This document shows positions 22,947 to 47,062 of a DNA stretch of 64,000 nucleotides, in pieces (positions within the stretch are counted from its first letter, which is position 1; each line of letters opens with the position of its first letter). Both the position numbers and the translations under genes were made by a program. The DNA lies in assembly GCA_903884375.1 (NCBI GenBank), contig CAISER010000025.1, positions 1,637 to 65,636 of the forward strand, written 5' to 3'. This stretch comes from Candidatus Collierbacteria bacterium (GTDB taxonomy: Bacteria; Patescibacteriota; Microgenomatia; UBA1400; MFAQ01). Below the pieces are notes generated by a model, which was not told the DNA's origin, made no database searches, and saw only the letters and a program-made list of their open reading frames with translations.

Positions 22947-25007
22947 TTAATGACGGAATCGGTGGCGGGAGAAGTGTTTCGAATTTTGAGATTTTTTTTC
23001 TTGCCGTTTTTGGTGTTTCCCAAAATTACGAAATAGATCCGGAAGATAATCTTTTAACCAATCTTTTTTTACTTCCAAGCAGGTACAAGCAAAAGTTTTT
23101 CCTTGAGGGTTGATAAAGATTTCATTGGCCACTAAGAATGAACCTTTGGATGGATAGCTGTTGAAATAGACAGAGTTGGGATGAATATAAATGTTAGACT
23201 TGGTTCCATCAACTTTTTTATAATAAAATTTATCAGACTTTTGAATTAGATTGCCAATAAGACCAGCCGTAATTGCTTGATGAATGGCATCTTTTCTGAT
23301 AATCGGCTTAGTGTTGGGATCAATATTGATTTGATGGTTGGCTAAGACAGTCAAAATATCCAAACGAACGTTTTTGGCTTCTTCAAGAACTTTTTCGTTG
23401 AAATAATTTTGTTTTGCCCAATCGTCACTGTAACCACTGGCGGCATATGCTTTCCAAATATTGAGCAGAACAATAAAATCTGAGTCGTTATTATTGATAT
23501 ATTGATCATGAGCTTTGTCAGCGAGGATTGCCTGGGCAGCTTCTTGAGGTCTGATAAATAAATTTTTCCCATCTAGAAGAGAAGCAATTATGACTATTTC
23601 ATTGACACAATTTATTTTTGGATCTAACGATTCAATAATCATGCGACCCAAACAAGGTTCTACCGCCAACTCAACTAACCAATCGCCTATTTCGGTAATT
23701 TGGCCTGATTCGTCCAAAGCACCAAGAGAAGTAAGAAGATTTAGAGCTTGAATGAGATTCTCGCTGCCTGGGTGATCCATAAAATCAAAGTTTCCAACAT
23801 TTTCGATGCCGACTTTTTTCATTGCGAGAACAACTTGGGACAAGTTGGAGCGTTGAATTTCAGGCGTTTGATACTGAGGGCGGTGTTTTAAACTTTCTTC
23901 AGTAAATAATCGATAACAATAGCCTGGTGCAGTGCGACCTGCTCTTCCTTTGCGTTGCTCTAAACCACTTATGGCGTGTTCAATAAGTTCTAACTTTTCA
24001 ATCCCGGATTTTGGATCAAACTTTGTTTGTTTAATTAGTCCGGAGTCGATAACGTGAATAACCCCATCGATAGTTACAGAGGTTTCGGCAATATTGGTAG
24101 CAATAATTATTTTTCTTTTGGGTGTAATAGTAAAAATATTGTCTTGCTCTTCTGGGGGTAGCTCTGCATGAAGAGGAAGAATTTCGACATCTGAAGAGCC
24201 CAACATTGCTTCAATTTTTTCAACTGTATCAGCAATTTCCTTTTTACCTGGCATAAAAATGAGAATATCTCCTTCGAGTTTTTGGTCGATGATCATTTTG
24301 ACTTTTTCGGCAGCGCCTTTGGTAAAGTCATAGTTGTAGGGAATTTCATTTTCGTAAAATATTTTTACGGGATACATTTTCCCAGGAATTTCAACCGAGT
24401 TATTGTTATCCTTCATGCCAATGTATTCAGCAAATCTATTCCGCTCAATAGTAGCCGAGGTAACAATGACACGAATAGGATCAACTCCAGCACCCAAACG
24501 ACGTTCGTTGACATCTTTAAGAAGTCCAAGGCAGAGATCAATGTTCAAACTGCGCTCATGAGCTTCGTCAACCATGACAATGGCGTAGTCAGTGAGCAAT
24601 GGGTCAAATTGAATTTTCCTTAATAAAATACCATCCGTCATAAAAGTAATGTCGGTGTTGTCCGTTGTCATGTCTTCAAAACGAATATGGAAACCTACCT
24701 GATCACCAACTTCACATTGCATCATTTCGGAAACACGACTAGTAACACTTCTTGTGGCGATTCTTCTGGGTTGAGTAACTGCGATTCCCCCCTTAAGTTT
24801 GAGCTCGTTTCGAAGTTCAAGGAGAAGAGGCGGTAAACAAGTGGTTTTGCCTGAACCGGTTTCTCCGATAAGAACAAAGTTTTGATGCTGTCTTATTTCT
24901 TGACGCAATAAATTTCTGAGATTGGCGACAGGAAGCCTATCCAAATTTTCAAGAGCATATTCCGACGAACAAATTTGTCGATTAATAGTATTTATTTCAG
25001 GTTTCAT
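22947..25007 (-). CDS. DEAH/RHA-family ATP-dependent RNA helicase (compact HrpA/HrpB/DHX-like)
   Basis: Motif I GETGSGKTT, motif II DEAHER, motif III TSAT, motif V TNIAETSVTI and motif VI QRKGRAGR. These are followed by an HA2-like region (LGALDESGQITEIGDWLVELAVEP) and an OB-like C-terminus with a basic tail. Confidence 0.85.
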   Translation of the reverse strand: MKPEINTINRQICSSEYALENLDRLPVANLRNLLRQEIRQHQNFVLIGETGSGKTTCLPPLLLELRNELKLKGGIAVTQPRRIATRSVTSRVSEMMQCEVGDQVGFHIRFEDMTTDNTDITFMTDGILLRKIQFDPLLTDYAIVMVDEAHERSLNIDLCLGLLKDVNERRLGAGVDPIRVIVTSATIERNRFAEYIGMKDNNNSVEIPGKMYPVKIFYENEIPYNYDFTKGAAEKVKMIIDQKLEGDILIFMPGKKEIADTVEKIEAMLGSSDVEILPLHAELPPEEQDNIFTITPKRKIIIATNIAETSVTIDGVIHVIDSGLIKQTKFDPKSGIEKLELIEHAISGLEQRKGRAGRTAPGYCYRLFTEESLKHRPQYQTPEIQRSNLSQVVLAMKKVGIENVGNFDFMDHPGSENLIQALNLLTSLGALDESGQITEIGDWLVELAVEPCLGRMIIESLDPKINCVNEIVIIASLLDGKNLFIRPQEAAQAILADKAHDQYINNNDSDFIVLLNIWKAYAASGYSDDWAKQNYFNEKVLEEAKNVRLDILTVLANHQINIDPNTKPIIRKDAIHQAITAGLIGNLIQKSDKFYYKKVDGTKSNIYIHPNSVYFNSYPSKGSFLVANEIFINPQGKTFACTCLEVKKDWLKDYLPDLFRNFGKHQKRQEKKSQNSKHFSRHRFRH

Positions 25008-25565: not shown

Positions 25566-26041
25566 CTACCATCTAAAATGAGCGAAGGCCTTGTTACTTT
25601 CAGCCATTTTGTGTGTATCTAGCTTTTTCTTGATTGCTGAGCCTGTGTTTTCATGAGCTTCCATGACTTCAGCAGCAAGTTTATCAGCCAGAGTTCTGGT
25701 TGGGTTGTTGGATCTGGCCTTGGCAGCATTCAATATCCAACGAATAGCAAGTGAATCGCGACGCTCCGGACGAATGGGAGTTGGGACCTGATAAGAGGCT
25801 CCTCCAACACGACGAGAACGAACTTCAATGTTTGGTTTGACATTTTCGATAGCTTCAGAAAGAAACTCTAGGCCGTTTTTGCCTGATTTTCGGCAATGAT
25901 ATCAATGGCGGTATAAATTTGTTTGGCAGCAACTGATTTTTTGCCTTCGAGCATACAACCATTAATGATCTTGGATACCAACTCACTTCCGTAAATTGGA
26001 TCAAGTTGAATTTTTTTAGTTGGGGTTTTTTTTGATCTCAT
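25566..26041 (-). pseudogene. rpsG: 30S ribosomal protein S7 gene interrupted by a 1-nt deletion in an A4 run (probable assembly artefact)
   Basis: Manual translation from the ATG at 26041 gives MRSKKTPTKKIQLDPIYGSELVSKIINGCMLEGKKSVAAKQIYTAIDIIAE, then a premature TAG at 25870-25868. The adjacent frame continues KSGKNGLEFLSEAIENVKPNIEVRSRRVGGASYQVPTPIRPERRDSLAIRW...HKMAESNKAFAHFRW to the stop at 25566. The span is 476 nt (3n+2). Confidence 0.85.
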
Positions 26042-33778: not shown

Positions 33779-34768
33779 TTAATTATTACAGTCTTTTTGA
33801 AGATAGACACAAATGTTATTGTGGTGCTGTTCTATTGTATTGGCAAAGTGAATAATGCCTTTTGTATCATGAAGATAAAACCAGGCAGAAGTTTTTTTAG
33901 GAGAAGCTGCAGCTTTTATGGCAGCGGCGCCAGGATTACATATTGGTTTTGGTGGTAGACCTTGATTTTGATATGTATTGTAGAGAGATTTTATTTGAAG
34001 ATCGGTATTTGAAAGACTTTTAGGCCACCAGTCACAGACTAAGTTTTTGCATCGGGCGGAAGAAAGAGCAAACTGAATAGTGGCATCAATCTGAAGAGGC
34101 CATTTGGCAGCGAGTCTGTTTTCTATTACTCCGGCAATTTCAGGCATTTCTTCTGCTGTGGCGGCTTCCCTTTCTAGAAGTGAAGCTAATATAAGAATAC
34201 TGTTTTGATCTTGTATATTAATTTTCGCTTCATTTAATACATCATTAAATCGGTTTTCCAAACGAGTGATAATGTCCGAAGTGCTGTCTTTGGGATCAAA
34301 ATCGTAAGTATCTGGAAATAACTTGCCTTCTTTGTTTTCAGTTTGATTCATAAATTCCGTCAAGGAAAAAGTTTTTCCTTCAATGTTTTTGAAGGCGTTG
34401 TCAAAAATGAGAGCGATTTCTTGGCGTCTTAAACCTTCCGGAATTGTAACTCTAACTTGTTTGGTACTGGCATGAGTGAGTGCTTTGGCAATGTCGGTAA
34501 TACTCATATTGGGAGAAAGACGAAAATATCCGGCTTGGACATTACTGCTAATTCCCATGGTAACAACGGTAATTTTAAATGCACTTCTGGATCTTATTAA
34601 TTGTTTGGTGCTTAGTTCCTGACCGATGCGATCGATACCCCATCCTGACACAATTTCGAACTCGACAGAAGGCAGCTGTTTGTACGTAACCGGTCTAGTG
34701 GCAAGGTAAAACCAACCAAAAAATGCGATGGCGATAAAAACAAGGGCGATAAAAAGACGTTTAAACAT
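33779..34768 (-). CDS. mltG: endolytic murein transglycosylase MltG (YceG-like)
   Basis: N-terminal TM helix, LILASLLEREA, and YNTYQNQGLPPKPICNPG motifs of the YceG family. Confidence 0.85.
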   Translation of the reverse strand: MFKRLFIALVFIAIAFFGWFYLATRPVTYKQLPSVEFEIVSGWGIDRIGQELSTKQLIRSRSAFKITVVTMGISSNVQAGYFRLSPNMSITDIAKALTHASTKQVRVTIPEGLRRQEIALIFDNAFKNIEGKTFSLTEFMNQTENKEGKLFPDTYDFDPKDSTSDIITRLENRFNDVLNEAKINIQDQNSILILASLLEREAATAEEMPEIAGVIENRLAAKWPLQIDATIQFALSSARCKNLVCDWWPKSLSNTDLQIKSLYNTYQNQGLPPKPICNPGAAAIKAAASPKKTSAWFYLHDTKGIIHFANTIEQHHNNICVYLQKDCNN

Positions 34769-34772
34769 GTGA

Positions 34773-34979
34773 CTAAACTTCGCTTAAAAGGGCACGTCTG
34801 TAGGTTTTTGTCTTTGGGTTATAGATAAAAATACGGCCACATTTACAAGTAACCTGATTGCATCCTTTTATTTTATTTGAAGGAGTACTTTCGCCTTCAA
34901 TTAAAGGTGTGCCACAACCAACGCAGGAACCCTTGGAAAGAAGCCAGGCTTGAACCGGAGCAATAATATTCTTAAACAT
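34773..34979 (-). CDS. small zinc-ribbon protein
   Basis: 68 aa with CVGC...CKCG cysteine pairs. Sits between ruvX and mltG with 4-nt spacing to mltG. Confidence 0.5.
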   Translation of the reverse strand: MFKNIIAPVQAWLLSKGSCVGCGTPLIEGESTPSNKIKGCNQVTCKCGRIFIYNPKTKTYRRALLSEV

Positions 34980-35001: not shown

Positions 35002-35400
35002 TTATGACAAAAGATTTTCGAGGTAATCTTCCAGAATAATGGCGGCGGCGGTTTGATGTTCACTTTTTTTTCTTTTGACGATGGTTTTTCCGGTTACTTT
35101 TAAAAGACTTCTCGCTGAACGAGAAGAAAGATCTTCGGAAAAGAGAACTATCTCGCCGGAGAAAATTTTTTCCAGTTCGGATTTGACGGCATCAGCATAC
35201 TCAACCAATGGACCATGAGGGGGAATGCCGATAACAATAGTATCAGGATGGGTCTTGACGATTAAGGGGAGAAGTTTACCTATGAGCTTATCAATCTTTG
35301 ATTCAAAGATTGTCGCCAAAGGTTCTGCCAATATTCCTTCACGAGAAATGGCTAAACCGGTGTGGACAGTACCGACATCAAGACAAAGAATTGTGGGCAT
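35002..35400 (-). CDS. ruvX: putative pre-16S rRNA nuclease / Holliday-junction-resolvase-like YqgF
   Basis: ILCLDVGTVHTGLAIS N-terminus and the C-terminal SEHQTAAAIILEDYL, typical of the YqgF/RuvX family. Confidence 0.8.
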   Translation of the reverse strand: MPTILCLDVGTVHTGLAISREGILAEPLATIFESKIDKLIGKLLPLIVKTHPDTIVIGIPPHGPLVEYADAVKSELEKIFSGEIVLFSEDLSSRSARSLLKVTGKTIVKRKKSEHQTAAAIILEDYLENLLS

Positions 35401-35502
35401 AATTTATTATAGTGTAGATGATTATCCCATCTTTTCTTTCCCTGTCCATTATTCCTTTATCTATCGGCTCAAAGAGTGTTAGAAATAATTTAGCGAGGGA
35501 GG

Positions 35503-36255
35503 TTAGTTTTCGATTAAGGAACCCTCAACTACCAAGCGACGTAGTGTGGTTCCAGGAGGGACACAGGTCACTACTTTTATCGTTTTGGAATTGTAATTTT
35601 GTTTTAATACCCAGAGTTCAGAGGGTTTTACTTCAATTACTTTGGTAACCCGGTAGGTGTACTCTTTGTCATTGTATTTGACGAATATGTCCGAGCCAGG
35701 TTTTATTTTTGGAAGATTGGAAAAAATAGTGGTGTATTTTTGTGCATCAAAAAATTGGGGAAGGGTGGAATGGCCAAAAATAACCGGTGAGCCGACCTGC
35801 CCAGGAAGAGCTGTTTGAGGATACTGAACCAGATGTTTAGTAAGATCTTCATCAAAAAGACTAACTTTTGCTTCTGCTAGACCGAGAGAGGGAATCGAAA
35901 TGGTATAAAATTCCGGAATTTCTCCATCATTTTCGATAGGTGAATTGAAAAGCTGATTTTGAGTACTACCTGGGAACCAACTACTGGCTTTGGTGTAGTC
36001 TAAATCACTTAATACTTTGGGTTCACTATCCGAATTTGCTTTTGATTCGTAGTAAACAGGTGACAACAAACCTTGGTCTTTTGAGTTGAAAAGATTTATA
36101 TCTTTAAGCTGATAACTGACAACCGGATAAATAACTGCACCAAGAATCCCAAGCCCCAAAGCAGAAATTAGAGTAGGAATTGTTTTTAGATAGATAGGAA
36201 TTTTTTTCCCGGGATGCGGATTTTTTGCCGTAGCCTTTTTGTACCCGTAGAGCAT
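35503..36255 (-). CDS. sortase-family transpeptidase
   Basis: N-terminal TM anchor, catalytic His context VIFGHSTLP, the Cys motif KVVTCVPPG and a downstream Arg (TTLRRLVV). Confidence 0.75.
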   Translation of the reverse strand: MLYGYKKATAKNPHPGKKIPIYLKTIPTLISALGLGILGAVIYPVVSYQLKDINLFNSKDQGLLSPVYYESKANSDSEPKVLSDLDYTKASSWFPGSTQNQLFNSPIENDGEIPEFYTISIPSLGLAEAKVSLFDEDLTKHLVQYPQTALPGQVGSPVIFGHSTLPQFFDAQKYTTIFSNLPKIKPGSDIFVKYNDKEYTYRVTKVIEVKPSELWVLKQNYNSKTIKVVTCVPPGTTLRRLVVEGSLIEN

Positions 36256-36256
36256 A

Positions 36257-38419
36257 TTATTTCTCTTTCAGCTCAAACTTGATGTTTTTTAGAGGAATAT
36301 AGTTGGCAAAAACAGGAATTTTGGGAGATATTCTGATGGTCAGATGGTCAAAACCTTGGATTGTGGTAAAAAAAGGACGAATATCGGCGGCCGGTTTCCC
36401 TTTGATAAATCCAGCAGTTTTTATCTCATCAATTTTAGGAAAAAGACTGGTTTCCACATTTATTTTGGCTTCATAGAAACTTCCTTTATTGGTGGGAGTT
36501 TCAAGTTTCATGGAAGTGTTACCGGGAAAAATTTCCGAACCGGAAGAAATTTTTGGAGAAAGCTGATTCGAAACTAACTGAAATAATCCGTCTTCGGAAT
36601 AAACAAGTGTTTCAACAGAACCTTCTAAATCAAGGTTGAGAACGGTGGCTTCTTCACCAACATTTTTATCAAAAGTTTTTTTGGTATAGGTAAAATCAGA
36701 CAGGGCTAAGGATTTATAACCCGTTGTTTGATCCCCTGTCGATGATTGAATCTGGGACGTTATCTTTTCACCAGCGATTTGAAGTAATTTTTCTTGATCA
36801 ATTTTCGAAACTGCTTGAACAGCTCTCGACGTACCACCGGAAAAGTCTGAGTCCGCCACAGCTACAATGGTGTTTTTTGAGTAGTTATCAACTGAAAAAG
36901 CAGAATTTTTGGGTAGATTGTGATCGGCACCAATTTTAGTAGCAGTTACTTTTACGCCTGAGGCAATTCCATAAGCACCCTGAACAATACCGACATCGGC
37001 GCTTTTGGAAGCGATGGTAATAGCCTCAGTAATGAGATAAGAATATTTGCCATTATCAGATAAGATTGAAGCACCTGATTTTAGAATAATCGGAGCAGTT
37101 GATTTGTTGGCGACAGTGATAATACCATTAGCTTTATCACCAACTGTTGCTTCTCCAGTGGTTGGAATTTGTTCTTTGGCGGAACCGAAAACTGTTTTTT
37201 TGGTGGCAAGTAGAGTTGGCGAACCGGAAATAGTGCTCTCGGCTATTGAAATTGAAAATTGATCGTTAATTTTTTCAGGTTTGAAATATATAGAGATGAT
37301 TGCTTGGCCGGTAAAAAGATAAAAAACAAAGCCTAAAATCAAAAATGCGGGAATAATAAGAAGATATAACCAGGAAAATTTACTTATTTTTAAGTTTGGA
37401 AAGTGAAATTTGGGTAATGAAGGAAGGGGTAGGGTATATTTTTGTTTGGGAGTTTTTATAAGAAGCGGTTCTTCGGGTTCAATAGCATATTCCGATTCTT
37501 CAGGTTCCGTTACCGATTCTATAATTGGCTCGGGCGGAGCTTTTTCAAGTGAGTCTGGAGCGGTTGATTCTTCGTAAGAAAAACCCAATTCACTTATAGA
37601 AGATGGTGTAACTTCGGGGATATAAATATTTGTTTCTTCTCGCGGAAGACTTTCTTCGTGAGTGTCTTCGATAACTTGCCCGGTAAGGTACTGAACAGCT
37701 TCGGTTCCTCCGGTGAGAGCAATGGCTTTAATACTAAAATCAACTGCCAATACTTCAACTTTTGGCATGTGCTGAAAAGGAAGGCGTTCTTGCCACGGAT
37801 GTGAAGTTATTCGTTGTTCCTCTTCTTCCAAGACTCCACCGTTAGTGAGAATAAAACGAGTGGGAAGTTTTTCGTGGCCGATCACGGTAAGCCCTTCTTC
37901 TACATCTTGTGCGAGGTCATCTGACCTTGCAGCTTCTTCTGAAGAAGTAATTTCACCTTTTTCTATAATTGAAACAACAACTTTGGTGGTATAAATCTCT
38001 AACAGAATAGCTGTCGGAGGAATACCTTCAAGTTTTTTCATGTAATGGGCAATTGCCGAGTTTATGGGAACCATACCAATCGGGTTAAGGCCCAACTCTT
38101 TTACCAGTCTGGCAATAAGTTTCGTTTTTGAAGGATGTATTTTGCCGTCATGTATCCAAGAATCCGGCAAACCAAAAATGACTTTACGCGGTTCTGCTTT
38201 AATTATTTTGACAGCTTGTTCGAGAGAGGCATCAACACCATTAATAAGTGAGTCTTCATCGGTCCAAGACTCAAATGAACCGACACTTACAACCGAAGGA
38301 TTGCCATTGGCAATTTCCCAAAGGGCGGTTTTGATTAAAGATTCATGGATTTCGATGGCCAAAAAATATTCCGGTTCTGTGGATTTTGATTTGTTCCCAA
38401 ATAGATTTACAAGATTCAT
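36257..38419 (-). CDS. bitopic membrane protein: cytoplasmic PilM/FtsA-like actin-fold domain, acidic/Pro linker, TM helix, large beta-rich external domain
   Basis: The N-terminus FLAIEIHESLIKTALWEI...LGLNPIGMVPINSAIAHY...LEIYTTKVVVSII resembles PilM/FtsA ATPase folds. TM helix is FSWLYLLIIPAFLILGFVFYLF. The C-terminal ~350 aa is Ser/Thr/Gly-rich. Start placed at the ATG at 38419 (the track start is a TTG). Confidence 0.5.
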   Translation of the reverse strand: MNLVNLFGNKSKSTEPEYFLAIEIHESLIKTALWEIANGNPSVVSVGSFESWTDEDSLINGVDASLEQAVKIIKAEPRKVIFGLPDSWIHDGKIHPSKTKLIARLVKELGLNPIGMVPINSAIAHYMKKLEGIPPTAILLEIYTTKVVVSIIEKGEITSSEEAARSDDLAQDVEEGLTVIGHEKLPTRFILTNGGVLEEEEQRITSHPWQERLPFQHMPKVEVLAVDFSIKAIALTGGTEAVQYLTGQVIEDTHEESLPREETNIYIPEVTPSSISELGFSYEESTAPDSLEKAPPEPIIESVTEPEESEYAIEPEEPLLIKTPKQKYTLPLPSLPKFHFPNLKISKFSWLYLLIIPAFLILGFVFYLFTGQAIISIYFKPEKINDQFSISIAESTISGSPTLLATKKTVFGSAKEQIPTTGEATVGDKANGIITVANKSTAPIILKSGASILSDNGKYSYLITEAITIASKSADVGIVQGAYGIASGVKVTATKIGADHNLPKNSAFSVDNYSKNTIVAVADSDFSGGTSRAVQAVSKIDQEKLLQIAGEKITSQIQSSTGDQTTGYKSLALSDFTYTKKTFDKNVGEEATVLNLDLEGSVETLVYSEDGLFQLVSNQLSPKISSGSEIFPGNTSMKLETPTNKGSFYEAKINVETSLFPKIDEIKTAGFIKGKPAADIRPFFTTIQGFDHLTIRISPKIPVFANYIPLKNIKFELKEK

Positions 38420-38430
38420 GACGACAGTCG

Positions 38431-40269
38431 TCAAACAAATTGTAAATAAAGGCGGCGTGTCCCTGCGCCAAGCGACTCTTGTTTGACTATCTTTATCTTA
38501 GCAAGTTCTTCAGTGTTCGTCACGTGGGGACCTCCACAAATCTCTTTGGAAAACGGATTATTTTTGTTCCCGATGGTGTAGACACTAACAATATCAGGAT
38601 ATTTTTGTCCAAAAAAGGCCATGGCACCTTCTTTTATTGCTTTTTCTTTAGGCATTTCTTCGCGGGTGACCGCTTGTTTTTCTGCGATAGTTTTATTAAT
38701 TAATTCTTCGACCTGTAGGAGCTCTCCGTCTGTTAATTTTTCTGGGTGAGAAAAATCAAACCTTAGTCTTTGCGCTGTTAAATTTGAACCTTTTTGACCA
38801 ATATGGTTTCCAAGTATTTGACGTAGAGCCGAGTGAAGAAGATGAGTAACAGTATGATAAGCGGTGACTGTTTTTGAGTTGTCTTCAAGACCACCCTTAA
38901 ACATACCAACAGAAGCAGTCCGACTAAGTTCTTTGTGTTTTTCAAATTCGGTTTCAAATTGATTGGTATCGATTTTAATATCCATTTGAGACAAAATCTC
39001 TGTGGTAATTTCAATGGGGAAACCGTAGTTTTGGTAAAGGTCAAAGGCTGTTTTCCCATCAATGTGGGGGTTTTTTTGAAGTTCTTTAATTCCTTTATCG
39101 AGTGAGAAACCAAATTTTTTTATTTCTACCCTTATCGTTTCAAAAATAACCGGAATATCTTTTTTTATTTCAAAATATATGGGTGAGTAAAATTGACAGA
39201 CAAGTGAACTTATTGGAGCCATCTTTTCCAGTATTTCGAGATTGCCTGTAAGAAAATACATTTTTACAGCTGCGCGGCGAAGTAGTCTTCTTAAAACATA
39301 GCCTTGAGCTTTATTTGTGGGGAAAACTCCGTCTTTAATCAAAAAAGTTGCAGCAGTTAAATGGTCTGCAATAACTCGCATTGAGGGCTGATTGATAACA
39401 TCAGAGTAAGACTTACCAGATATTTTTTCGATTTCTTGAATCAGGGGGTATAGGCTGCTAATTTTAAACATATCCGGTTCGGAATTGGTAACTGCTTCGA
39501 GTCTGGTAAGCCCACCACCAAAATCAATATTTTTTCGAGGAAGCTCCACCAAAGAACCGTCTTCATTTTTAATATATTGCATAAAAACAGAATTACCAAT
39601 TTCCAAGAAACGTCCACATTCACAGTTGGGGTGACATTTTTCATTTTTAAATGGTGATTTTTCATGAAGCAGACGATTTTCACCAAAATCAAAGAAAACT
39701 TCAGAATCTGGACCGCCTGGTTCACCTGGGGGCATATTTTCCGGCACCCCTGCTCTAGACCACCAATTTTTATTTGACTGATAGGCAAAAATGCGCTCAC
39801 CTTCTTTTGCCGTAAGACCGACTTTTTTAAATAAATCTTGCCAGATGGCAATTGATTCAATATCCTTACCCACTCCAGAACCACCCCCAAATACCGTGAT
39901 AAATAATTTTTTAGGGTCAAGACCAAGACCTTCATCTTTTTTTGTTAAAAATGTAAAAAACCATTCGAGCTGTTTGTCTTTAAAATAATCGCCTAAAGAC
40001 CAGTTCCCTAACATTTCAAAAAAAGTGGTATGACGATTATCACCAATTTCATCAATGTCACCAGAACGGAAACATTTTTGAGAATCAACCAGACGGGTAC
40101 CAAGGGGATGTTTTTGACCTAATAGATAAGGCATCATGGGTTGCATCCCAGCGGAAGTAAAGAGAGTAGTGGCGTCACCTTCTGGAACTAACGAAGAAGA
40201 GGGAATAATGGAATGACCTCGTTTTTCCATAAATAAGAGATATTTCTGCCTTATTTCATTGATGGTCAT
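38431..40269 (-). CDS. alaS: alanine--tRNA ligase lacking the C-Ala domain
   Basis: FTSAGMQPMMPYLLG class II motif. Editing-domain metal motifs HTVTHLLHSALR and CGGPHV. The protein ends right after the editing domain (612 aa). Confidence 0.9.
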   Translation of the reverse strand: MTINEIRQKYLLFMEKRGHSIIPSSSLVPEGDATTLFTSAGMQPMMPYLLGQKHPLGTRLVDSQKCFRSGDIDEIGDNRHTTFFEMLGNWSLGDYFKDKQLEWFFTFLTKKDEGLGLDPKKLFITVFGGGSGVGKDIESIAIWQDLFKKVGLTAKEGERIFAYQSNKNWWSRAGVPENMPPGEPGGPDSEVFFDFGENRLLHEKSPFKNEKCHPNCECGRFLEIGNSVFMQYIKNEDGSLVELPRKNIDFGGGLTRLEAVTNSEPDMFKISSLYPLIQEIEKISGKSYSDVINQPSMRVIADHLTAATFLIKDGVFPTNKAQGYVLRRLLRRAAVKMYFLTGNLEILEKMAPISSLVCQFYSPIYFEIKKDIPVIFETIRVEIKKFGFSLDKGIKELQKNPHIDGKTAFDLYQNYGFPIEITTEILSQMDIKIDTNQFETEFEKHKELSRTASVGMFKGGLEDNSKTVTAYHTVTHLLHSALRQILGNHIGQKGSNLTAQRLRFDFSHPEKLTDGELLQVEELINKTIAEKQAVTREEMPKEKAIKEGAMAFFGQKYPDIVSVYTIGNKNNPFSKEICGGPHVTNTEELAKIKIVKQESLGAGTRRLYLQFV

Positions 40270-40329: not shown

Positions 40330-40668
40330 TTATATTGGCCGAAAGGGGCGAACAGAAGGAGGTGCCGGGGGAGGAACTTCCCCCAAAGAAACATTGGGGC
40401 CTAATACTTCAGTACTGTGAAAATCATAGGTAGAATGATGAGGTGTTTCCTCCGGAATTATTATAGGAGTTCGTGGAAGTTCTGGTTTATCTTGATGAAT
40501 TAAATTATCAGGAATTTTTTTATATTTTTCAGGTATGGAATCAAGAACTTTTTTGACAACCTTACGGCCTTCTTCAGTGCCAAAAAGTAAGGCAGCAATG
40601 ATACCTATAGTGGCTCCCATAGCAAAGGAAGAAAAATGATGATCGGTGGCTTTATTAGATGGAGTCAT
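40330..40668 (-). CDS. small membrane protein (YtxH-like) with Pro-rich C-terminus
   Basis: GATIGIIAALLFGTEEGRKVVKKV resembles the YtxH-type helix. ATG at 40668. Confidence 0.4.
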   Translation of the reverse strand: MTPSNKATDHHFSSFAMGATIGIIAALLFGTEEGRKVVKKVLDSIPEKYKKIPDNLIHQDKPELPRTPIIIPEETPHHSTYDFHSTEVLGPNVSLGEVPPPAPPSVRPFRPI

Positions 40669-40954
40669 TGTTTTCAAGATTTACCGGGGGAGTTGGCTGA
40701 TCTTTACCCAGAAGATGTTGAACCATCTCAACGATTTTGCCTGACTGGCGGAAACCCTCGATGATGGCAAAAAGTCCAACTGCTGGTTGAGAAAGTTTTT
40801 GGAGAGTATCATCGGCAGTGTCGAGAGTGTGATTGATTCTGGTAAGGGAACTTTTCATTTCTTTTAAAACAACTATTAGCTCAATGCCGACGATAACGGC
40901 AACAATAGTCAGTACGGACATAGAGATTAAGGAAACAATTTGGGGCAGTGTCAT
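40655..40954 (-). CDS. small membrane protein (DUF948-like)
   Basis: An N-terminal TM helix followed by a coiled region (LKEMKSSLTRINHTLDTADDTLQKL), as in DUF948 proteins. Confidence 0.4.
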   Translation of the reverse strand: MTLPQIVSLISMSVLTIVAVIVGIELIVVLKEMKSSLTRINHTLDTADDTLQKLSQPAVGLFAIIEGFRQSGKIVEMVQHLLGKDQPTPPVNLENNDSI

Positions 40955-41006: not shown

Positions 41007-41636
41007 TCAGTTTGAAATAACGGTAAGGGGTAATTCGATAAAAGAGGAACGAGAAAAACGGTTGGTCGTTTTTATTTTTATTATTGTCTCCCCCACCGGA
41101 AGGCTAAGTCTCAACTGAAAGTGGCCATTTTGGTCTGGCTTTACCACATTATCATCATTAATAGTAACTAATGAATCGGTGGAAGTTTCCCCCAGTATTT
41201 CAACAGGAGAGGCTAATACTGTATCTTTTTGGGGTTTGCTTATTTCCAGAGGTGGTGGAGTGAGAATGACCCGAAACTGGAAAGCCAAATAGATAATAAA
41301 AACAACAATACCAAGGATAATAGAGAAAAATTGTGGTGATAATCCAGATAGGATCTTTTTGGATGATCGATTATTATTTTTTAAAAAATTGTTATTATCA
41401 AAATTACGATAATCTCTTCTGAAAATAGCAATGTTTTCTTCGGGGTTGCATCCTAGATTTAAAGAGAGATTTCTGATAAAACCCTTAGCAAAGGTTTCTG
41501 ATGGAAGAAGATCATATTTGTCGGCTTCAAGAGCTTTTATGTATTTAACGTCAATCTTTGTAGCGAGAGATAGCTCTTCAACGGAAATATTTTTTATATT
41601 TCTTTCTTTGTAAAGTAACTGGCCGACTGTTTTCAT
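41007..41636 (-). CDS. RodZ-like helix-turn-helix membrane protein
   Basis: An N-terminal HTH (ISVEELSLATKIDVKYIKALEADKYDLLPSETFAKGFIRN), a central TM helix and a C-terminal beta domain. Confidence 0.6.
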   Translation of the reverse strand: MKTVGQLLYKERNIKNISVEELSLATKIDVKYIKALEADKYDLLPSETFAKGFIRNLSLNLGCNPEENIAIFRRDYRNFDNNNFLKNNNRSSKKILSGLSPQFFSIILGIVVFIIYLAFQFRVILTPPPLEISKPQKDTVLASPVEILGETSTDSLVTINDDNVVKPDQNGHFQLRLSLPVGETIIKIKTTNRFSRSSFIELPLTVISN

Positions 41637-41641
41637 AACAG

Positions 41642-43762
41642 TTATTCTTCCAAAGTTTCGTTTTGGGGCAGATATTCATCAAAACTGCTAACAATAATTT
41701 CACGGGGTTTGTTGCCTTCAGCATGGGCCAAAATACCGGCATTTTCCAACTGGTCGAGGATTCTGGCTGCTCTGGCGTAGCCGACTTCGAGACGCCGTTG
41801 AAGAAGGGAGGCCGAACCCTTGCCTTCGGCGATACAGAGTCTGGCAGCTTCTTCAAATTTTTCGTCAACGTTACCTAAGTCTTGACCATTGGTGGACATG
41901 GTCCCTTTAGTAGAAACATTCCGAGTAATAGTGTCATCAACCTTTGCTTCAACTCCCATGCTCTTTATGTATCTAATTAGGTCGCCAATTTCTCGTTCAG
42001 AAACGAAGGCTCCTTGAATACGTTTGGGTTTGGCAACGTCTGGAGGAATAAATAACATATCGCCTTTACCTAATAGTTTTTCGGCACCTGGTGAGTCAAT
42101 AATGACACGAGAATCGATCATGGAAGTGACTTGGAAAGCAATACGGGCAGGGACATTGGCCTTGATAATACCAGTCAAAACGTTAACTGATGGACGTTGG
42201 GTGGCAAGAACCAAGTGAATACCAACGGCACGAGCCATCTGGGCTAACCTAACAATGCGATTTTCAACTTCCCCGGCATTTTTACTCATCATAATATCGG
42301 CAATTTCATCAATAACAATGACAATATAAGGCATGGATTGAAAGGCTTTACTTTCGTTGTAACCAGCAATATTTTTAACACCAACCTCTTGGAATATTTT
42401 GTAACGAGTTTCCATTTCTTTGACAGCCCAACCAAGAGCGTTGACTACTTTATCAACATCTACAATAACATCGGTAAGAAGATGAGGAATTCCACTGTAA
42501 GGAGTAAGTTCGACACGTTTTGGGTCAACCATGATAAATTTAACTTCTTCAGGAGAAGCACGGAAAAGAATTGAGGCGATAAAGGCATTAATTAAAACGG
42601 ATTTTCCGGAACCTGTAGTTCCGGCTATAAGAACGTGAGGCATTTTGGCTATATCAACAGTACAAGCTGTGCCAGAAACATCAAGACCTAACGAAACCAT
42701 GGTTTTTGATTTACTGCTTTGCATGGCCGGAGAACTTAGCATGTCTCTCAGAGAAACAAATTCAAGTGAGCGATTAGGTATTTCGATACCGACCAAGTCT
42801 CTCCCGGGGATGGGGGCTTCAATACGAATTTGACCTTGGGGAGCTGACAGAGCCAAGGCCAGATCTGATTGAAGTGCGTTTATTTTACTTAGCTTTGTCC
42901 CCATAGCGATAGTGAGAGCATACTGAGTGACTGCAGGACCTTTGTGAACTTCGGAAACTTGAGCTTCAATTGAAAATGATTTCAAAGTATTTTGAATGAT
43001 TTCAATATTTTTGTTGATATCACCACGATCGGCTTTGCCAAGTTTTTGATCAGAGAGAAGATTAATGGGAGGATATTGCCAAATAGTAGCCGTAGCTCCT
43101 TCGAGTAGTGGCTTGGGCGGAAGCTGACTTACTGGTTGAGTCTTGATTTTTGCTTCTTGATGAATAACCGGTGTGGTTGGTGTAAATGTATCCTCTCCAC
43201 CAGTAATTTTGACTGAACCAGGTTTACTAACGAAAACGGTGCCATTTCTTTTTCCTAGAGTTTGAAGTTTATTTCCAGCATCACCAACTTTTTTGGCACC
43301 TTCCTGAATAAAAAGGACTAGGTCTTCGATTGAAGTCTCAAAAAGAATAAATAAACCGATGGCGGTACCGACAACAAAAAAGAGAATGGCTCCAGGTGTT
43401 GAGATCAGAGAAACAATAGAGTCTTTTATACCAACACCAATACTGCCCGAACCTGTAAGACCAGATAACGAAATCATCGTTACAACACTACCCAATAGAA
43501 CATGAGCAGATGCAATGGCTAGTTTAACATGAGTCAACATTAAGCCACCAGAAATAAGAATAAAAGGAATAAAAAGAAGTGGCCAACCGAGTAACCCGCG
43601 GCCAACTTCATTGACCTTGGTTAAAAAGACGCCTTGTTGGGAGAAAGAAATAGCGATTAAACCACCTATTCCCATAATTAGAACGGCCATGATGGAATTC
43701 ATGGTGTCTTTTTTAAGATTTAGTTTGTAAGGTTTTGAACGGCGACCTTTTTTACGAGCCAT
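41642..43762 (-). CDS. ftsK: DNA translocase FtsK/SpoIIIE
   Basis: N-terminal TM helices, Walker A LIAGTTGSGKSVLIN, Walker B VIVIDEIADIM, and the gamma winged-helix ASLLQRRLEVGYARAARILDQLE. Confidence 0.92.
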   Translation of the reverse strand: MARKKGRRSKPYKLNLKKDTMNSIMAVLIMGIGGLIAISFSQQGVFLTKVNEVGRGLLGWPLLFIPFILISGGLMLTHVKLAIASAHVLLGSVVTMISLSGLTGSGSIGVGIKDSIVSLISTPGAILFFVVGTAIGLFILFETSIEDLVLFIQEGAKKVGDAGNKLQTLGKRNGTVFVSKPGSVKITGGEDTFTPTTPVIHQEAKIKTQPVSQLPPKPLLEGATATIWQYPPINLLSDQKLGKADRGDINKNIEIIQNTLKSFSIEAQVSEVHKGPAVTQYALTIAMGTKLSKINALQSDLALALSAPQGQIRIEAPIPGRDLVGIEIPNRSLEFVSLRDMLSSPAMQSSKSKTMVSLGLDVSGTACTVDIAKMPHVLIAGTTGSGKSVLINAFIASILFRASPEEVKFIMVDPKRVELTPYSGIPHLLTDVIVDVDKVVNALGWAVKEMETRYKIFQEVGVKNIAGYNESKAFQSMPYIVIVIDEIADIMMSKNAGEVENRIVRLAQMARAVGIHLVLATQRPSVNVLTGIIKANVPARIAFQVTSMIDSRVIIDSPGAEKLLGKGDMLFIPPDVAKPKRIQGAFVSEREIGDLIRYIKSMGVEAKVDDTITRNVSTKGTMSTNGQDLGNVDEKFEEAARLCIAEGKGSASLLQRRLEVGYARAARILDQLENAGILAHAEGNKPREIIVSSFDEYLPQNETLEE

Positions 43763-45697: not shown

Positions 45698-47062
45698 ATG
45701 GAAAAATTGGTGAAAGAAAGAGTGATTCGAATATTTAATTTATCAGAGGATGTTTGGCCTTTTATTGAAACGATGGGCAACAAAAAGGCAAGAATGTCGG
45801 AGATTGAGGAAAACGCAAACTTGGCCGACCGTGATTTGTTTTCAATGGCTGAGGAGTTTGAGTTTACCTTTATCACTCCCAAAAAACTGGATCCCCATTT
45901 CGTAAACTACTTTATCAAAGTTTGTATGATGCGGGAAATGGAAGTATTGGTTCCCAAAAAAAATAGTGGACTTATTTGTGAGGATATTTTGGCGGATAAG
46001 GAGATTATGAAGAGGCTTGTTAAACTGGGGAAGAGCTGTAAAAGATTGGTGCTTACCGCCTACTCTACTTCGCCATATTTTTTACACTTGGTTGGCGAGT
46101 TACGGAAAAAGGGAATTGAAGTACGAACACCAGAAGCTCCAGATGAGGCTAATGCTTGGACGGTAAATTTTTACGGAAGCAAATCGGGGATAAGACAACT
46201 GACACAGATAAACGGGGCAATTAGAGCGGACTTGAAAATGCCTAATGGAGTTGTTTCCTCGGGAGTGTTGGACTCTGCAAGGATAGCGGCAAATAAATAT
46301 ATAAAGGAAAATGGAGTAGTAATCAAAACAAACAAAGGCCACTCAGGAATGGGAGTACTTATTTTCCGTAAAGGTGATTTGCCGAAAAAATATCGAGAGT
46401 GTCAGAAAAAAATTATTGAAATATTTAACGGAGACAGTTACTGGGAAAAATTTCCGATCGTGGTGGAGTCTTTGGTAAAACCCAATCCTCGGATCGGAGG
46501 AGGTTTTCCAAATGCGGAGTTTTTGATAAAAAAAGATGGCGAGGTAAAACTTTTGTATTACTGTGGAATGCGAGTAGACGACAAGGGCGTTTTTGGCGGA
46601 GTGGAGATAGGAGAAGAAGTATTGCCTCGTCGTGTGACTTCCAGAATTACCGATATCGGTTATCTAATTGGCGAACAGTATGCCGAAGACGGTTATCGTG
46701 GTTTTTTTGATATTGATTTTATTGCCGGAAAAGGTGGAGAGATATTTGTGAATGAGTCGAATGTAAGAGTCACTGGAGGAACACATGTGTATCAAGCAGC
46801 AGTAGAACTGGCTGGGCGAGAGTTTATGAAGAAAGTCTATGTGTTGTCGAATAATAACTACGATATTCCAAACAAAAAAATCTTTACTTTCGACAGACTT
46901 CATAAACTAATGAAACCGATACTTTTTGACAGAAAAACGCGTGAGGGATTGGTGATTGCATCGTCAAATCTATTGGCAATGGGAAAACTGGCTTACATTA
47001 TTTTTGGAAAAAATAAACGTAGAGCTTTGGCCGTCGAGGAAGAGATGACGAGATTATTATAA
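45698..47062 (+). CDS. ATP-grasp ligase with pre-ATP-grasp domain (PGM1-like peptide-ligase family, tentative)
   Basis: YGSKSGIRQL..., the central strand VVIKTNKGHSGMGVLIF, and the Mg/ATP-site region FFDIDFIAGKGGEIFVNESNVRVTGGTH. One of only four plus-strand genes. Confidence 0.55.
   Translation: MEKLVKERVIRIFNLSEDVWPFIETMGNKKARMSEIEENANLADRDLFSMAEEFEFTFITPKKLDPHFVNYFIKVCMMREMEVLVPKKNSGLICEDILADKEIMKRLVKLGKSCKRLVLTAYSTSPYFLHLVGELRKKGIEVRTPEAPDEANAWTVNFYGSKSGIRQLTQINGAIRADLKMPNGVVSSGVLDSARIAANKYIKENGVVIKTNKGHSGMGVLIFRKGDLPKKYRECQKKIIEIFNGDSYWEKFPIVVESLVKPNPRIGGGFPNAEFLIKKDGEVKLLYYCGMRVDDKGVFGGVEIGEEVLPRRVTSRITDIGYLIGEQYAEDGYRGFFDIDFIAGKGGEIFVNESNVRVTGGTHVYQAAVELAGREFMKKVYVLSNNNYDIPNKKIFTFDRLHKLMKPILFDRKTREGLVIASSNLLAMGKLAYIIFGKNKRRALAVEEEMTRLL

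Follow-up and report, generated by a model that had tools for sequence, protein, structure and literature searches.

FtsA, an actin-fold protein with the 1C (SHS2) and 2B subdomains that it uses for partner binding, tethers the divisome to the membrane by a C-terminal amphipathic targeting helix and is encoded beside ftsZ and ftsQ. GspL and PilM/PilN, the bitopic or peptide-tethered platform proteins of T2SS and type IV pili, have a cytoplasmic actin-fold domain that binds a partner (PilN peptide, GspE, PilB); in GspL and PilMN a TM helix connects this domain to an outer one with the ferredoxin-like fold of PilN, PilO, GspL and GspM. The gp6/J wedge proteins (Mu gp47, P1 BplA, diffocin TRI-2, Pvc11 and Afp11) are built from domains that act as oligomerising ring-builders in the baseplates of phages and contractile injection systems (CIS), as seen in PDB entries. 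Class A (housekeeping) and class C (pilus) sortases combine the sortase fold and a His-Cys-Arg triad with an N-terminal anchor and a TC(V/T)PxG...R signature. Finally, B. subtilis, like other Firmicutes, displays the gene order alaS-yrzL-ruvX(yrrK)-yrzB-mltG(yrrL).

Here we report on a stretch of 64,000 nucleotides from a Candidatus Collierbacteria bacterium (hereafter the window), in which genes for a 720-residue membrane protein, termed X, and for a sortase are lodged in a version of the latter cluster. X combines an actin fold inside the cell with a baseplate-wedge module outside it; this architecture was not found described in the literature on baseplate J, sortases and FtsA/actin-like proteins in CPR, Patescibacteria or Microgenomates.

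The X-sortase locus

The ORF listing together with Pfam and NCBIfam searches places X and the sortase between alaS and ruvX-mltG (Table 1), with alaS, the sortase, RuvX and YceG/MltG all scoring above the cut-offs of these databases. The TGA stop of alaS (38431-38433) and the ATG of X at 38419 are separated by 11 nt (cgactgtcgtc), and a single nucleotide lies between the TAA stop of X (36257-36259) and the sortase ATG at 36255, the sortase gene ending at 35503. An earlier first-pass annotation, made from the letters alone, had given these ORFs and spacings correctly and had described the pair as inserted between alaS and ruvX-mltG, a description borne out by the gene order here and in relatives. 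We consider that alaS and X probably share one transcript, and that X and the sortase probably share a transcript and are translationally coupled. The sortase-ruvX gap contains a promoter-like TGGACA-16-GATAAT at 35448..35421; in a promoter and terminator scan such sites were no commoner than in shuffled sequence. An Rfam scan of the window returned no match.

Table 1. Features of the X-sortase locus, in window coordinates
Feature	Position	Strand	Basis
mltG (yceG), endolytic transglycosylase	33779..34768	-	Pfam YceG 245 bits; TIGR00247 189 bits
68-aa CxxC...CxC Zn-ribbon-like ORF, between ruvX and mltG	34773..34979	-	
ruvX (yqgF), 102 nt downstream of sortase	35002..35400	-	Pfam RuvX
Sortase, 250 aa	35503..36255	-	Pfam Sortase, TIGR01076
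Sortase parts: N-terminal TM anchor (about aa 24-47), ~70-aa spacer, catalytic domain			
Gene X, 720-aa bitopic membrane protein	36257..38419 (stop codon counted)	-	ORF and homologue alignment for ATG
X residues 372-720, extracytoplasmic multi-domain module	36260..37306	-	
X residues ~349-371, single TM helix, N-in topology	37307..37375	-	Hydropathy, AF2, Lys-rich N-side flank
X residues 248-345, disordered acidic Pro-rich cytoplasmic linker	37385..37678	-	pLDDT and composition
X residues 278-284 (LGFSYEE), conserved short linear motif in linker	37568..37588	-	Alignments
X residues ~15-247, cytoplasmic minimal ASKHA (actin-fold) domain	37679..38377	-	AF2 model, structure search
alaS (612 aa, short form), ends 11 nt before X	38431..40269	-	NCBIfam NF002436, 627 bits
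RodZ-like protein (HTH_25, TM helix, Glucodextran_B-like domain)	41007..41636	-	Pfam HTH_25 E=3e-16

Relative to the Firmicutes cluster, alaS, ruvX and mltG retain their order and orientation, whereas the Microgenomates version has X and the sortase between alaS and ruvX, and its yrzB position is occupied by an unrelated 68-aa Zn-ribbon-like ORF. The latter matched no known family in searches that included Pfam and NCBIfam, and is 60-94% identical from locus to locus. The RodZ-like gene, which ftsK (41642..43762) immediately precedes, is part of the conserved block as well and is kept upstream in related loci. The 64-kb window has no pil or gsp genes (T4P, T2SS), and the neighborhood of X has no wedge partners or tail/CIS genes (sheath, tube, spike, gp7/gp25-like).

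Conservation of the gene order

Comparison of about 60 related loci, which are not phylogenetically independent, gave a median X-sortase gap of 4 nt, with no gap above 150 nt among 56 loci. Gaps of more than 150 nt are present at other junctions of the block, namely sortase-ruvX (11/52), ruvX-Zn-ribbon ORF (13/43) and mltG-rpoB (15/38). X-sortase is one of only two junctions of the block that are never interrupted; the Zn-ribbon-like ORF and mltG are separated in 0/44. The X-sortase junction stays tight despite genes inserted after the sortase at one locus (L064) and an inversion of alaS at another (L059). The alaS gene adjoins X in 55 of 59 loci, nearly as tightly as X adjoins the sortase. 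Linkage of the pair in relatives, which the first-pass annotation had named as a check on its proposal, holds down to 25-30% identity (about 28%). Nevertheless, the whole ftsK-to-rpoB block is syntenic, and part of the X-sortase adjacency is thus inherited gene order. Moreover, in a Daviesbacteria clade (L050, L051, L060) X is intact while sortase, ruvX and mltG are all missing downstream of it; at the gene level, at least, X can therefore stand away from the sortase. X sits in a housekeeping block with rpoBC and ribosomal genes, the synteny of which is conserved and vertical across Microgenomates.

The X family

The start of X is the ATG at 38419, M1 being conserved in at least 90% of the homologue alignment; the TTG at 38434 given in the ORF list is an over-extension, as homologues start at the ATG. 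A protein-database search yielded 195 close relatives, and the wider family comprises 8368 cluster representatives at E<=1e-3, of which 1739 fall at E<=1e-30; hence, X is a real gene. All named homologues are from Microgenomates among the matches listed (for the cluster search, the best 150 of 8368); the protein-database searches were filled by close Microgenomates relatives, and the taxonomic range given for X is that of these matches. X had no significant match in Pfam or NCBIfam, and neither single-protein nor profile queries recovered one, by sequence, in the PDB. NCBI annotates X as "hypothetical", and UniRef applies a phage-derived domain name that is misleading. The AF2 model of the whole protein has a mean pLDDT of 79.

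The cytoplasmic region of X

In the AF2 model, the N-terminal domain consists of two RNase-H-like lobes, each with the succession beta-beta-beta-alpha-beta-alpha-beta-alpha, separated by an interdomain cleft, i.e. an ASKHA fold. Among solved structures FtsA and PilM come closest to it, with FtsA the top match of the structure search. The actin-like domain that the first-pass annotation had assigned to this region, with FtsA and PilM as its likenesses, is thus recovered in the structural model. The domain is, however, a reduced version: its core of ~230 residues, against about 370-380 in FtsA, aligns structurally with 215 of 370 FtsA residues, and it lacks the 1C and 1B inserts, with 2B at most minimal. 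No insert is seen between the strand at 40-50 and the helix at 55-69, or after the strand at 79-84. An hhalign comparison of its profile with E. coli FtsA gave a weak match in register (E=0.02, 72 columns, covering the N-terminal ~70 residues), and one with E. coli HofM gave no match. Likewise, even at E<=10 X matched no FtsA/SHS2_FTSA model in Pfam or NCBIfam, and neither PilM_2 nor GspL in Pfam. X further departs from FtsA in having a genuine TM helix and, beyond it, an external module of 350 residues, and in its neighbors, which are alaS and the sortase rather than ftsZ and ftsQ. The absence of 1C also sets it apart from PilM/PilN and GspL.

The phosphate loops of X lack their glycines, reading EIHES and EIYTTK instead of DIGT and DxGGG. 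Across a broad sample of 58 members, the acidic residues of these loops are present in 47 (E23) and 41 (E141); the remaining 11 and 17 members (19-29%) have N, Q, G or R there. By comparison, the adenosine motif is retained (G237 in 58/58, G238 in 50/58), and W34, W88, W209, F215, P219, D172, G237 and E240 are invariant in the sample. E. coli FtsA likewise has a Glu at the position that hhalign aligns with the phosphate-1 Glu. Variable phosphate-loop acids and missing Gly-rich loops, set against invariance at other positions, suggest that the domain may be non-enzymatic. The same features tell against the label "ATPase" that it had been given in the first-pass annotation.

The linker that follows is rich in Glu (19%) and Pro (15%), has a net charge of -14, and is modelled with pLDDT below 50 along most of its length. 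Within it, the motif LGFSYEE coincides with a local rise in pLDDT and a short helix at 275-278; its G279 and F280 are invariant in the close-homologue alignment, and in the broad sample F280 is kept in 56/58 and G279 in 51/58 members. The LGF motif is at most a candidate ligand for partner binding. The TM helix, an AF2 helix at 350-370, is the sole segment of X with a Kyte-Doolittle 19-residue window mean of at least 1.6. The model, composition and hydropathy agree with the bitopic layout, with its acidic Pro-rich linker and one TM helix, that had been read from the translation. The Lys-rich N-side flanks of the TM helices of both X and the sortase predict an N-in topology for the two proteins, and this topology would put the C-terminal domain of X and the catalytic domain of the sortase on the same, outer face.

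The outer module of X

The external region begins with a long beta-hairpin stalk, continues with a beta-barrel resembling those of GlxA and EF-Tu domain II, and ends in C-terminal alpha/beta subdomains. Structure searches show that the barrel is common to the baseplate wedge gp6/J proteins and that the region has the wedge fold. According to the model, it is a rigid module composed of beta-barrel and alpha/beta domains like those of phage/CIS baseplate wedge proteins. The rmsd to these proteins is 15-37 Å, implying that the domains of X are arranged differently. X also differs from them in being membrane-anchored, extracytoplasmic and encoded in the core chromosome, and in its absence from the phage collections searched. 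With GlxA, the membrane-anchored galactose-oxidase homologue of Streptomyces lividans, it has only the accessory beta-barrel in common; X lacks a Kelch propeller or copper site, and contains no Cys at all. There were no PilN, PilO, GspL or GspM proteins among the structural matches of the outer domain, the fold of which is not the ferredoxin-like one of those proteins.

At the sequence level, X of the window scores 15.3-17.3 bits with Baseplate_J (PF04865), below the gathering cut-off of 21.1. Among its relatives, 22 of 37 match this model at E<=0.01 (best 2.7e-5), and a few have a precomputed PF04865 match. A PHROG match of the C-terminal domain to Baseplate_J was marginal; this domain had no tblastn match among 50,697 phage records, and an IMG/VR scan found no relative of X. 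The remark in the first-pass annotation that similar outer domains in CPR genomes are labelled baseplate-J-like is supported by the wedge fold, by the UniRef name and by the sub-threshold PF04865 scores. Its description of a Ser/Thr/Gly-rich outer domain is right as to the ~350 residues and the external location, but the enrichment is modest, at 27.6% Ser+Thr+Gly.

The sortase

The product of the second gene had been called a sortase, and profile searches and an intact triad agree: it scores 74 bits with Pfam PF04203 (cut-off 26.6) and 49.2 with TIGR01076 (cut-off 39.35), and its His162, Cys231 (in VTCVPPG) and Arg240 are invariant in 53 orthologues. These residues and the N-terminal anchor predict a catalytically competent, membrane-anchored enzyme. 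In the PDB its sequence matches are an LPXTG-site transpeptidase of B. anthracis (2kw8) and class C sortases. Of the class-specific NCBIfam models for classes A-F none reaches its cut-off, the best being class C (52.4 vs 160 bits), with the class E, D and F models scoring below it. In contrast to class C sortases, it has no C-terminal anchor, and no lid motif was identified in it.

In a combined regex and hydrophobicity scan, none of the ORFs of the window, as had been stated before, or of about 60 related loci ended in an LPXTG-like sorting signal, the only returns being spurious antisense ORFs. X was considered as a substrate of the sortase and rejected; its conserved Pro-rich stretches are either cytoplasmic or C-terminal with no TM helix after them. 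A sortase family is reported to occur in nearly all Microgenomates but only patchily in other CPR groups (PMC6744442), and for this reason the sortase may be the housekeeping one. The claim that it is dedicated to X is accordingly unproven, also in view of the Daviesbacteria clade with X but no adjacent sortase.

Functional implications

We tentatively favor the view that X is a housekeeping protein of the envelope, inherited vertically, and a transmembrane scaffold that would link the cell interior to sortase-dependent envelope assembly. Its cytoplasmic domain would then dock or oligomerise instead of acting as an enzyme, in the manner of a pseudo-ATPase such as GspL, and might respond to a cytoplasmic cue or partner from the apparatus of division or elongation (FtsZ/FtsA, MreB and the neighboring RodZ-like protein being examples). 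The external module might organise or position the sortase on the same face, and a sortase so placed could join surface proteins to lipid II and peptidoglycan where the wall is being made. The coupling of X and sortase is supported by the same-face topology, the invariant triad, the uninterrupted junction and the linkage down to about 28% identity, and also by the range of X in Microgenomates, which parallels the reported near-ubiquity of a sortase family there (PMC6744442). The neighbors ftsK, the RodZ-like gene and mltG, all envelope or division genes, speak for an envelope role. Against the coupling count the tight alaS-X spacing, which carries no implied common function, the Daviesbacteria clade, and the lack of a substrate nearby; against a pseudo-enzyme count the retained G237/G238 and the presence of the phosphate-loop acids in most members. 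The "surface-assembly machine" of the first-pass annotation is in our hands a hypothesis: its observations stood, and its functional reading did so in part, without the ATPase, the dedicated sortase or the machine itself being established.

The same data could be read as indicating two independent genes, with X a TM-anchored FtsA-like division or elongation tether from filament to wall and the sortase a general housekeeping enzyme that is its neighbor by synteny. This is somewhat unlikely, though the structure search ranks FtsA first, the N-terminal ~70 residues of X match it in register, ftsK, the RodZ-like gene and mltG share the block, the almost equal tightness of alaS and X shows that close spacing here needs no common function, and the Daviesbacteria X lacks an adjacent sortase. 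However, the X-sortase junction is never interrupted in 56 loci and outlasts local rearrangements, X lacks 1C and most of 2B, by which FtsA binds its partners, and almost every CPR genome already encodes canonical FtsA/PilM-family proteins (about 2242 genomes; PMC6744442 and its supplement). The last point also led us to discard the idea that X substitutes for an absent FtsA. A second alternative makes X the inner-membrane platform of a surface filament, as an analogue of GspL or a PilM-PilN fusion, at the base of which a class-C-like sortase polymerises or anchors pilin-type substrates. Its layout of actin fold, TM helix and external domain mirrors GspL/PilMN, wedge domains build rings by oligomerising, class C is the best-scoring class model, and TCVPPG...RRLVV resembles the class C TCTPYG...RL. 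But we judge it decidedly unlikely, given that neither the window nor the 60 related loci contain a pilin, pilB/pilC or sorting-signal gene, that PilN, PilO, GspL and GspM are missing from the matches of the external domain and a Pfam PilM/GspL match from X even at E<=10, that the sortase reaches 52 of the 160 bits needed for class C and has no C-terminal anchor, and that T4P clusters of CPR already hold separate PilM/N/O genes (PMC6744442).

Could X instead be an active ASKHA enzyme or signaling ATPase, whose external sensing controls a cytoplasmic nucleotide cycle? The well-supported fold, the retained G237/G238 and invariant D172 and E240, and a phosphate-1 Glu in 47 of 58 members, with a Glu at the aligned position of E. 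coli FtsA too, would be compatible with this, but both phosphate loops are devoid of glycines, their acidic residues are replaced in 19-29% of members, and the 230-residue core offers no substrate-binding insert, making such activity highly improbable. An origin of X as a prophage or CIS baseplate remnant has its sole support in the fold and the weak Pfam/PHROG Baseplate_J similarity of the C-terminal domain. It is effectively refuted by the location of X inside a core housekeeping block with no phage genes nearby, by vertical conserved synteny across Microgenomates, by the want of any match in 50,697 phage records or relative in IMG/VR, and by the TM anchor that places the domain on the external side of the membrane.

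A bolder extension of the scaffold proposal, which we regard as unlikely at present, is that X and the sortase form the core of an unrecognised, Microgenomates-specific transenvelope apparatus, with a non-catalytic actin fold inside, a domesticated, oligomeric wedge platform outside and, on that platform, a surface structure built or anchored by the sortase. Such a structure might be a pilus, an S-layer tether or a host-attachment organelle; inside the cell, the actin-fold domain might oligomerise or dock to the cytoskeleton.

Conclusions

Almost nothing is known of the cell envelope and host-interaction biology of Microgenomates, a CPR lineage of ultra-small bacteria without cultivated members. 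The X-sortase pair, lying in a housekeeping block and conserved to 25-30% identity, is a core feature of this lineage. The architecture of X, which joins an internal actin fold to an external baseplate-wedge module, has no counterpart in the literature covered, and the function of X is inferred. The domain map of X, its conserved residues and its short motif already provide sites for mutation and targets for complex prediction. If X organises the sortase, then cytoplasmic spatial cues would be linked to the anchoring of surface proteins, a connection of which we know no instance in Firmicutes or Actinobacteria, and a building block of phage tails would have been recruited into the cell envelope. 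Should the transenvelope apparatus be real, it would be the first case of a sortase pathway served by its own cytoplasmic organiser, and of a gp6/J wedge module put to cellular, non-injection use on the external face of a membrane.

Gene neighborhood of X and the sortase

The 720-aa bitopic membrane protein X is encoded between alaS and a sortase gene, in a region of the window where all genes lie on the minus strand. In the raw sequence 11 nt separate the alaS stop from the X ATG and 1 nt separates the X stop from the sortase ATG. The coordinates, spacings and gene calls of the first-pass annotation were correct. The window otherwise holds housekeeping genes, namely lepA, hrcA-grpE-dnaK-dnaJ, nusA-infB, rpsO-pnp, RNase J, rpsL, fusA and ribosomal protein operons.

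Features of the window: the X neighborhood in transcription order, followed by other features
Feature	Position	Strand	Remarks
ftsK	43762..41642	-	first in transcription order
RodZ-like HTH_25 membrane protein	41636..41007	-	directly after ftsK
two small membrane ORFs	40954..40655 and 40677..40330	-	overlapping; before alaS
alaS	40269..38431	-	short 612-aa form; above curated Pfam/NCBIfam cut-offs
X	38419..36257	-	720-aa ORF
LGF(S)YEE linker motif of X	37568..37588	-	aa 278-284
sortase	36255..35503	-	250 aa; above curated Pfam/NCBIfam cut-offs
ruvX	35400..35002	-	RuvX above curated Pfam/NCBIfam cut-off
zn68	34979..34773	-	68-aa Zn-ribbon-like ORF
mltG/yceG	34768..33779	-	YceG/MltG above curated Pfam/NCBIfam cut-offs
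rpoB and rpoC		-	after mltG
rpsG (ribosomal protein S7)	25566..26041	-	frameshifted
DEAH/HrpA-like helicase	22947..25007	-	686 aa; DEAD, Helicase_C, HA2 and OB_NTP_bind domains
454-aa protein	45698..47062	+	weak pre-ATP-grasp, ATP-grasp and PGM1_C matches
GH39-family glycoside hydrolase	60352..61743	+	

The succession of ftsK and the RodZ-like gene is kept in related loci, as is the position upstream of alaS of the two small ORFs, which show weak similarity to DUF948 (E=0.02) and YtxH (E=7e-4). In the RodZ-like protein the HTH_25 domain is accompanied by a TM helix and a beta domain resembling Glucodextran_B. Since RodZ of other bacteria uses its HTH domain to bind MreB, an actin homologue, we speculate that this protein is a candidate partner of the actin-fold domain of X. 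The zn68 product displays a CxxC...CxC pattern and has no family match in Pfam, NCBIfam or PDB. Across loci whose X proteins share only 28-77% identity it keeps 60-94%, a conservation about equal to that of RpoB, and its position is that of yrzB in the Firmicutes cluster.

The helicase gene between rpsG and fusA occupies an unusual spot within the str operon. In rpsG itself the N-terminal 57 aa end ...AENQAKTA-stop and the remainder (GKNGLEFLSEAIENVKP...AHFRW) lies in another frame, probably because an A-rich run was misassembled or has a 1-nt indel, although a real pseudogene or a recoding event may be involved. The two plus-strand genes in the table are among the few in the window.

Domain architecture and topology of X

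No Pfam or NCBIfam model matches X at E<=0.01, and PDB sequence searches gave no match; at relaxed thresholds the sole match is Baseplate_J (PF04865; E=0.003-0.012, residues 429-530), whose 15-17 bits stay below the gathering threshold of 21.1. An AlphaFold2 model built from 34 homologues (mean pLDDT 79) resolves two confident parts, an N-terminal domain (residues 17-246, pLDDT 82-90) and a C-terminal module (372-719), with a disordered segment (252-346) and a helix (350-370) between them. This layout agrees with composition and hydropathy: Glu makes up 19% and Pro 15% of the linker, whose net charge is -14, the outer module is 27.6% Ser+Thr+Gly, and there is a single hydrophobic segment at ~349-371, whose Lys-rich N-side flank predicts an N-in topology.

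The 1C (SHS2) subdomain is a defining feature of FtsA and PilM. In the model the actin-fold N-domain of X, at ~230 residues, has no space for 1C and little for 2B. Among 58 sampled family members (~25-100% identity), the acidic residues of phosphate-1 (E23) and phosphate-2 (E141) are retained in 47 and 41, respectively, and both phosphate loops are without the usual glycines; W34, G83, W88, V117, G155, D172, P186, W209, F215, P219, G237 and E240 are invariant. Drift at the catalytic positions beside fixed residues elsewhere fits a pseudo-ATPase with a docking or structural role, like that of GspL, better than an enzyme. The acidic linker, elsewhere unconserved, retains the LGF(S)YEE motif (F280 in 56/58 and G279 in 51/58 sequences), a candidate short linear motif for partner or intramolecular binding.

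Structure comparisons of the outer module recovered, after a higher-ranked match, gp6/J-family baseplate wedge proteins: the list comprises cyanophage A-1(L) gp31 (12.6), diffocin TRI-2 (12.1), P1 BplA and Mu gp47 (11.8), phiCD508 Baseplate J (11.7), XM1 gp16, phi812, Milano gp29, Pvc11 (9.0), T4-type gp6 (8.1) and Afp11 (6.4). PilN, PilO, GspL and GspM structures were absent from the top 60 matches. Pfam Baseplate_J is matched by 22 of 37 family members at E<=0.01, and UniRef names several "Baseplate protein J-like domain-containing protein" where NCBI has hypothetical; on these grounds the baseplate-J-like label that the first-pass annotation mentioned for similar outer domains in CPR genomes was right.

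The sortase and its substrates

The neighbor of X is a genuine sortase that fits no class-specific model: Pfam Sortase gives its catalytic domain 74 bits and the TIGR01076 cut-off is also passed, whereas the best class in NCBIfam is C, at 52 versus 160 bits. Its nearest solved sequence relatives in PDB are an LPXTG-site transpeptidase of B. anthracis (2kw8) and sortases of class C. The active site is intact, with His162 (GHS), Cys231 (TCVPPG) and Arg240 invariant across 53 orthologues. A Lys-rich N-terminal segment followed by a TM helix (~aa 24-47, hydropathy) predicts that the catalytic domain is extracellular and shares its side of the membrane with the outer module of X.

When the window and the ~60 related loci were scanned for (L/I/V/...)Px(T/S/A/G)x with a hydrophobic stretch and a basic tail behind it, no genuine ORF emerged from any of them, in line with the earlier claim on LPXTG-type signals in the window. 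X itself was rejected as a substrate, its conserved Pro-rich stretches being either cytoplasmic of the TM helix or C-terminal with no later membrane segment.

Phyletic distribution and gene linkage

X is a large, vertically inherited family in Microgenomates. Beyond 195 close homologues, an exhaustive profile search recovered 8368 cluster representatives at E<=1e-3, of which 1739 reach E<=1e-30. Nearly all of the best 150 of the 8368 are full-length (676-822 aa), a few being shorter fragments. All named records among the matches listed in the various searches belong to Microgenomates (Collier-, Woese-, Daviesbacteria or "Microgenomates group"). Many MAGs with the locus bear taxon names that appear to be wrong, namely 'uncultured Pseudomonadales', 'Gammaproteobacteria' or 'Spirochaetia bacterium' (L005-L007, L012-L014, L019, L022 and others). 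The range of X agrees with that of the sortase family, which is reported to occur in nearly all Microgenomates and only patchily elsewhere in the CPR (PMC6744442). Canonical FtsA/PilM-family proteins occur in nearly all CPR genomes (PMC6744442 table); hence, X is an additional actin-fold protein and was rejected as an FtsA replacement.

Neighbors were mapped by tblastn and ORF calling in ~60 related loci, which are not phylogenetically independent. The X-sortase junction is exceptionally stable and tight: in 56 loci the sortase comes next after X, the gap having a median of 1-4 nt and exceeding 150 nt in none of them (0/56). The linkage in relatives that the first-pass annotation wished to see checked holds down to ~28% X identity (L047, L049, L053). 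The tight junction also withstands insertion of NUDIX and peptidase genes behind the sortase (L064) and inversion of alaS (L059). The sole other never-broken junction is zn68-mltG (0/44); sortase-ruvX is broken in 11/52 loci, ruvX-zn68 in 13/43, mltG-rpoB in 15/38 and alaS-X, inversions included, in 4/59.

A single Daviesbacteria clade (L050, L051, L060) departs from this arrangement: there alaS-X is followed by PMT_2-type glycosyltransferase genes, with no sortase, ruvX or mltG in the 5-6 kb downstream of X. In the stretches 6168..8195 of L050, 7133..9130 of L051 and 9093..10499 of L060, X is succeeded by large polytopic membrane proteins, with a nearby opposite-strand gene for a PMT_2-type glycosyltransferase in L060; a different envelope-modifying partner may be indicated.

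Functional interpretation

The analysis establishes the domain map, topology and fold assignments of X, as well as the intact sortase active site, the vertically inherited family and the tight X-sortase junction. We tentatively propose that X is a transmembrane scaffold organizing the sortase, and hence surface-protein anchoring, at envelope-growth sites. This proposal is weakened by the near-equal tightness of alaS-X, by the Daviesbacteria clade with X but no adjacent sortase, and by the phylogenetic dependence among the loci. The first two observations also leave room for X and the sortase to function independently: X would be a tether of the divisome or elongasome, and its adjacency to the sortase a product of synteny. 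We consider this rather unlikely beside a junction unbroken by insertions and inversions around it. X would work most like the GspL and PilM-PilN units, which are likewise bitopic platforms whose actin fold is cytoplasmic, and might be such a platform for a sortase-assembled filament; this is improbable for a protein whose outer module recovered none of their structures. FtsA is the closest in structure, and X lies outside all three families because it lacks 1C and any profile match and has a different external domain and gene context.

The N-domain may bind nucleotide, and the acidic residues are kept in most members; that X is a real ATPase or sensor is nevertheless very unlikely given the drifting catalytic positions. 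Although its fold is that of baseplate wedge proteins, the outer module is no baseplate component. A recent phage origin of the module was rejected: tblastn against 50,697 phage genomes gave no match and PHROG only a marginal one, and X has no relative in IMG/VR. The idea of a phage remnant is, therefore, effectively refuted.

We found no description of X or of its pairing with a sortase in the literature. The finding is real, conserved and undescribed, and X would be a bitopic actin-fold scaffold with an unprecedented external module and putative partner. For these uncultivated bacteria we infer a function in which the cytoplasmic actin-fold core would dock to a partner or oligomerize, the external wedge-type module would organize the sortase, and surface proteins would thereby be anchored to the wall at sites of envelope growth.
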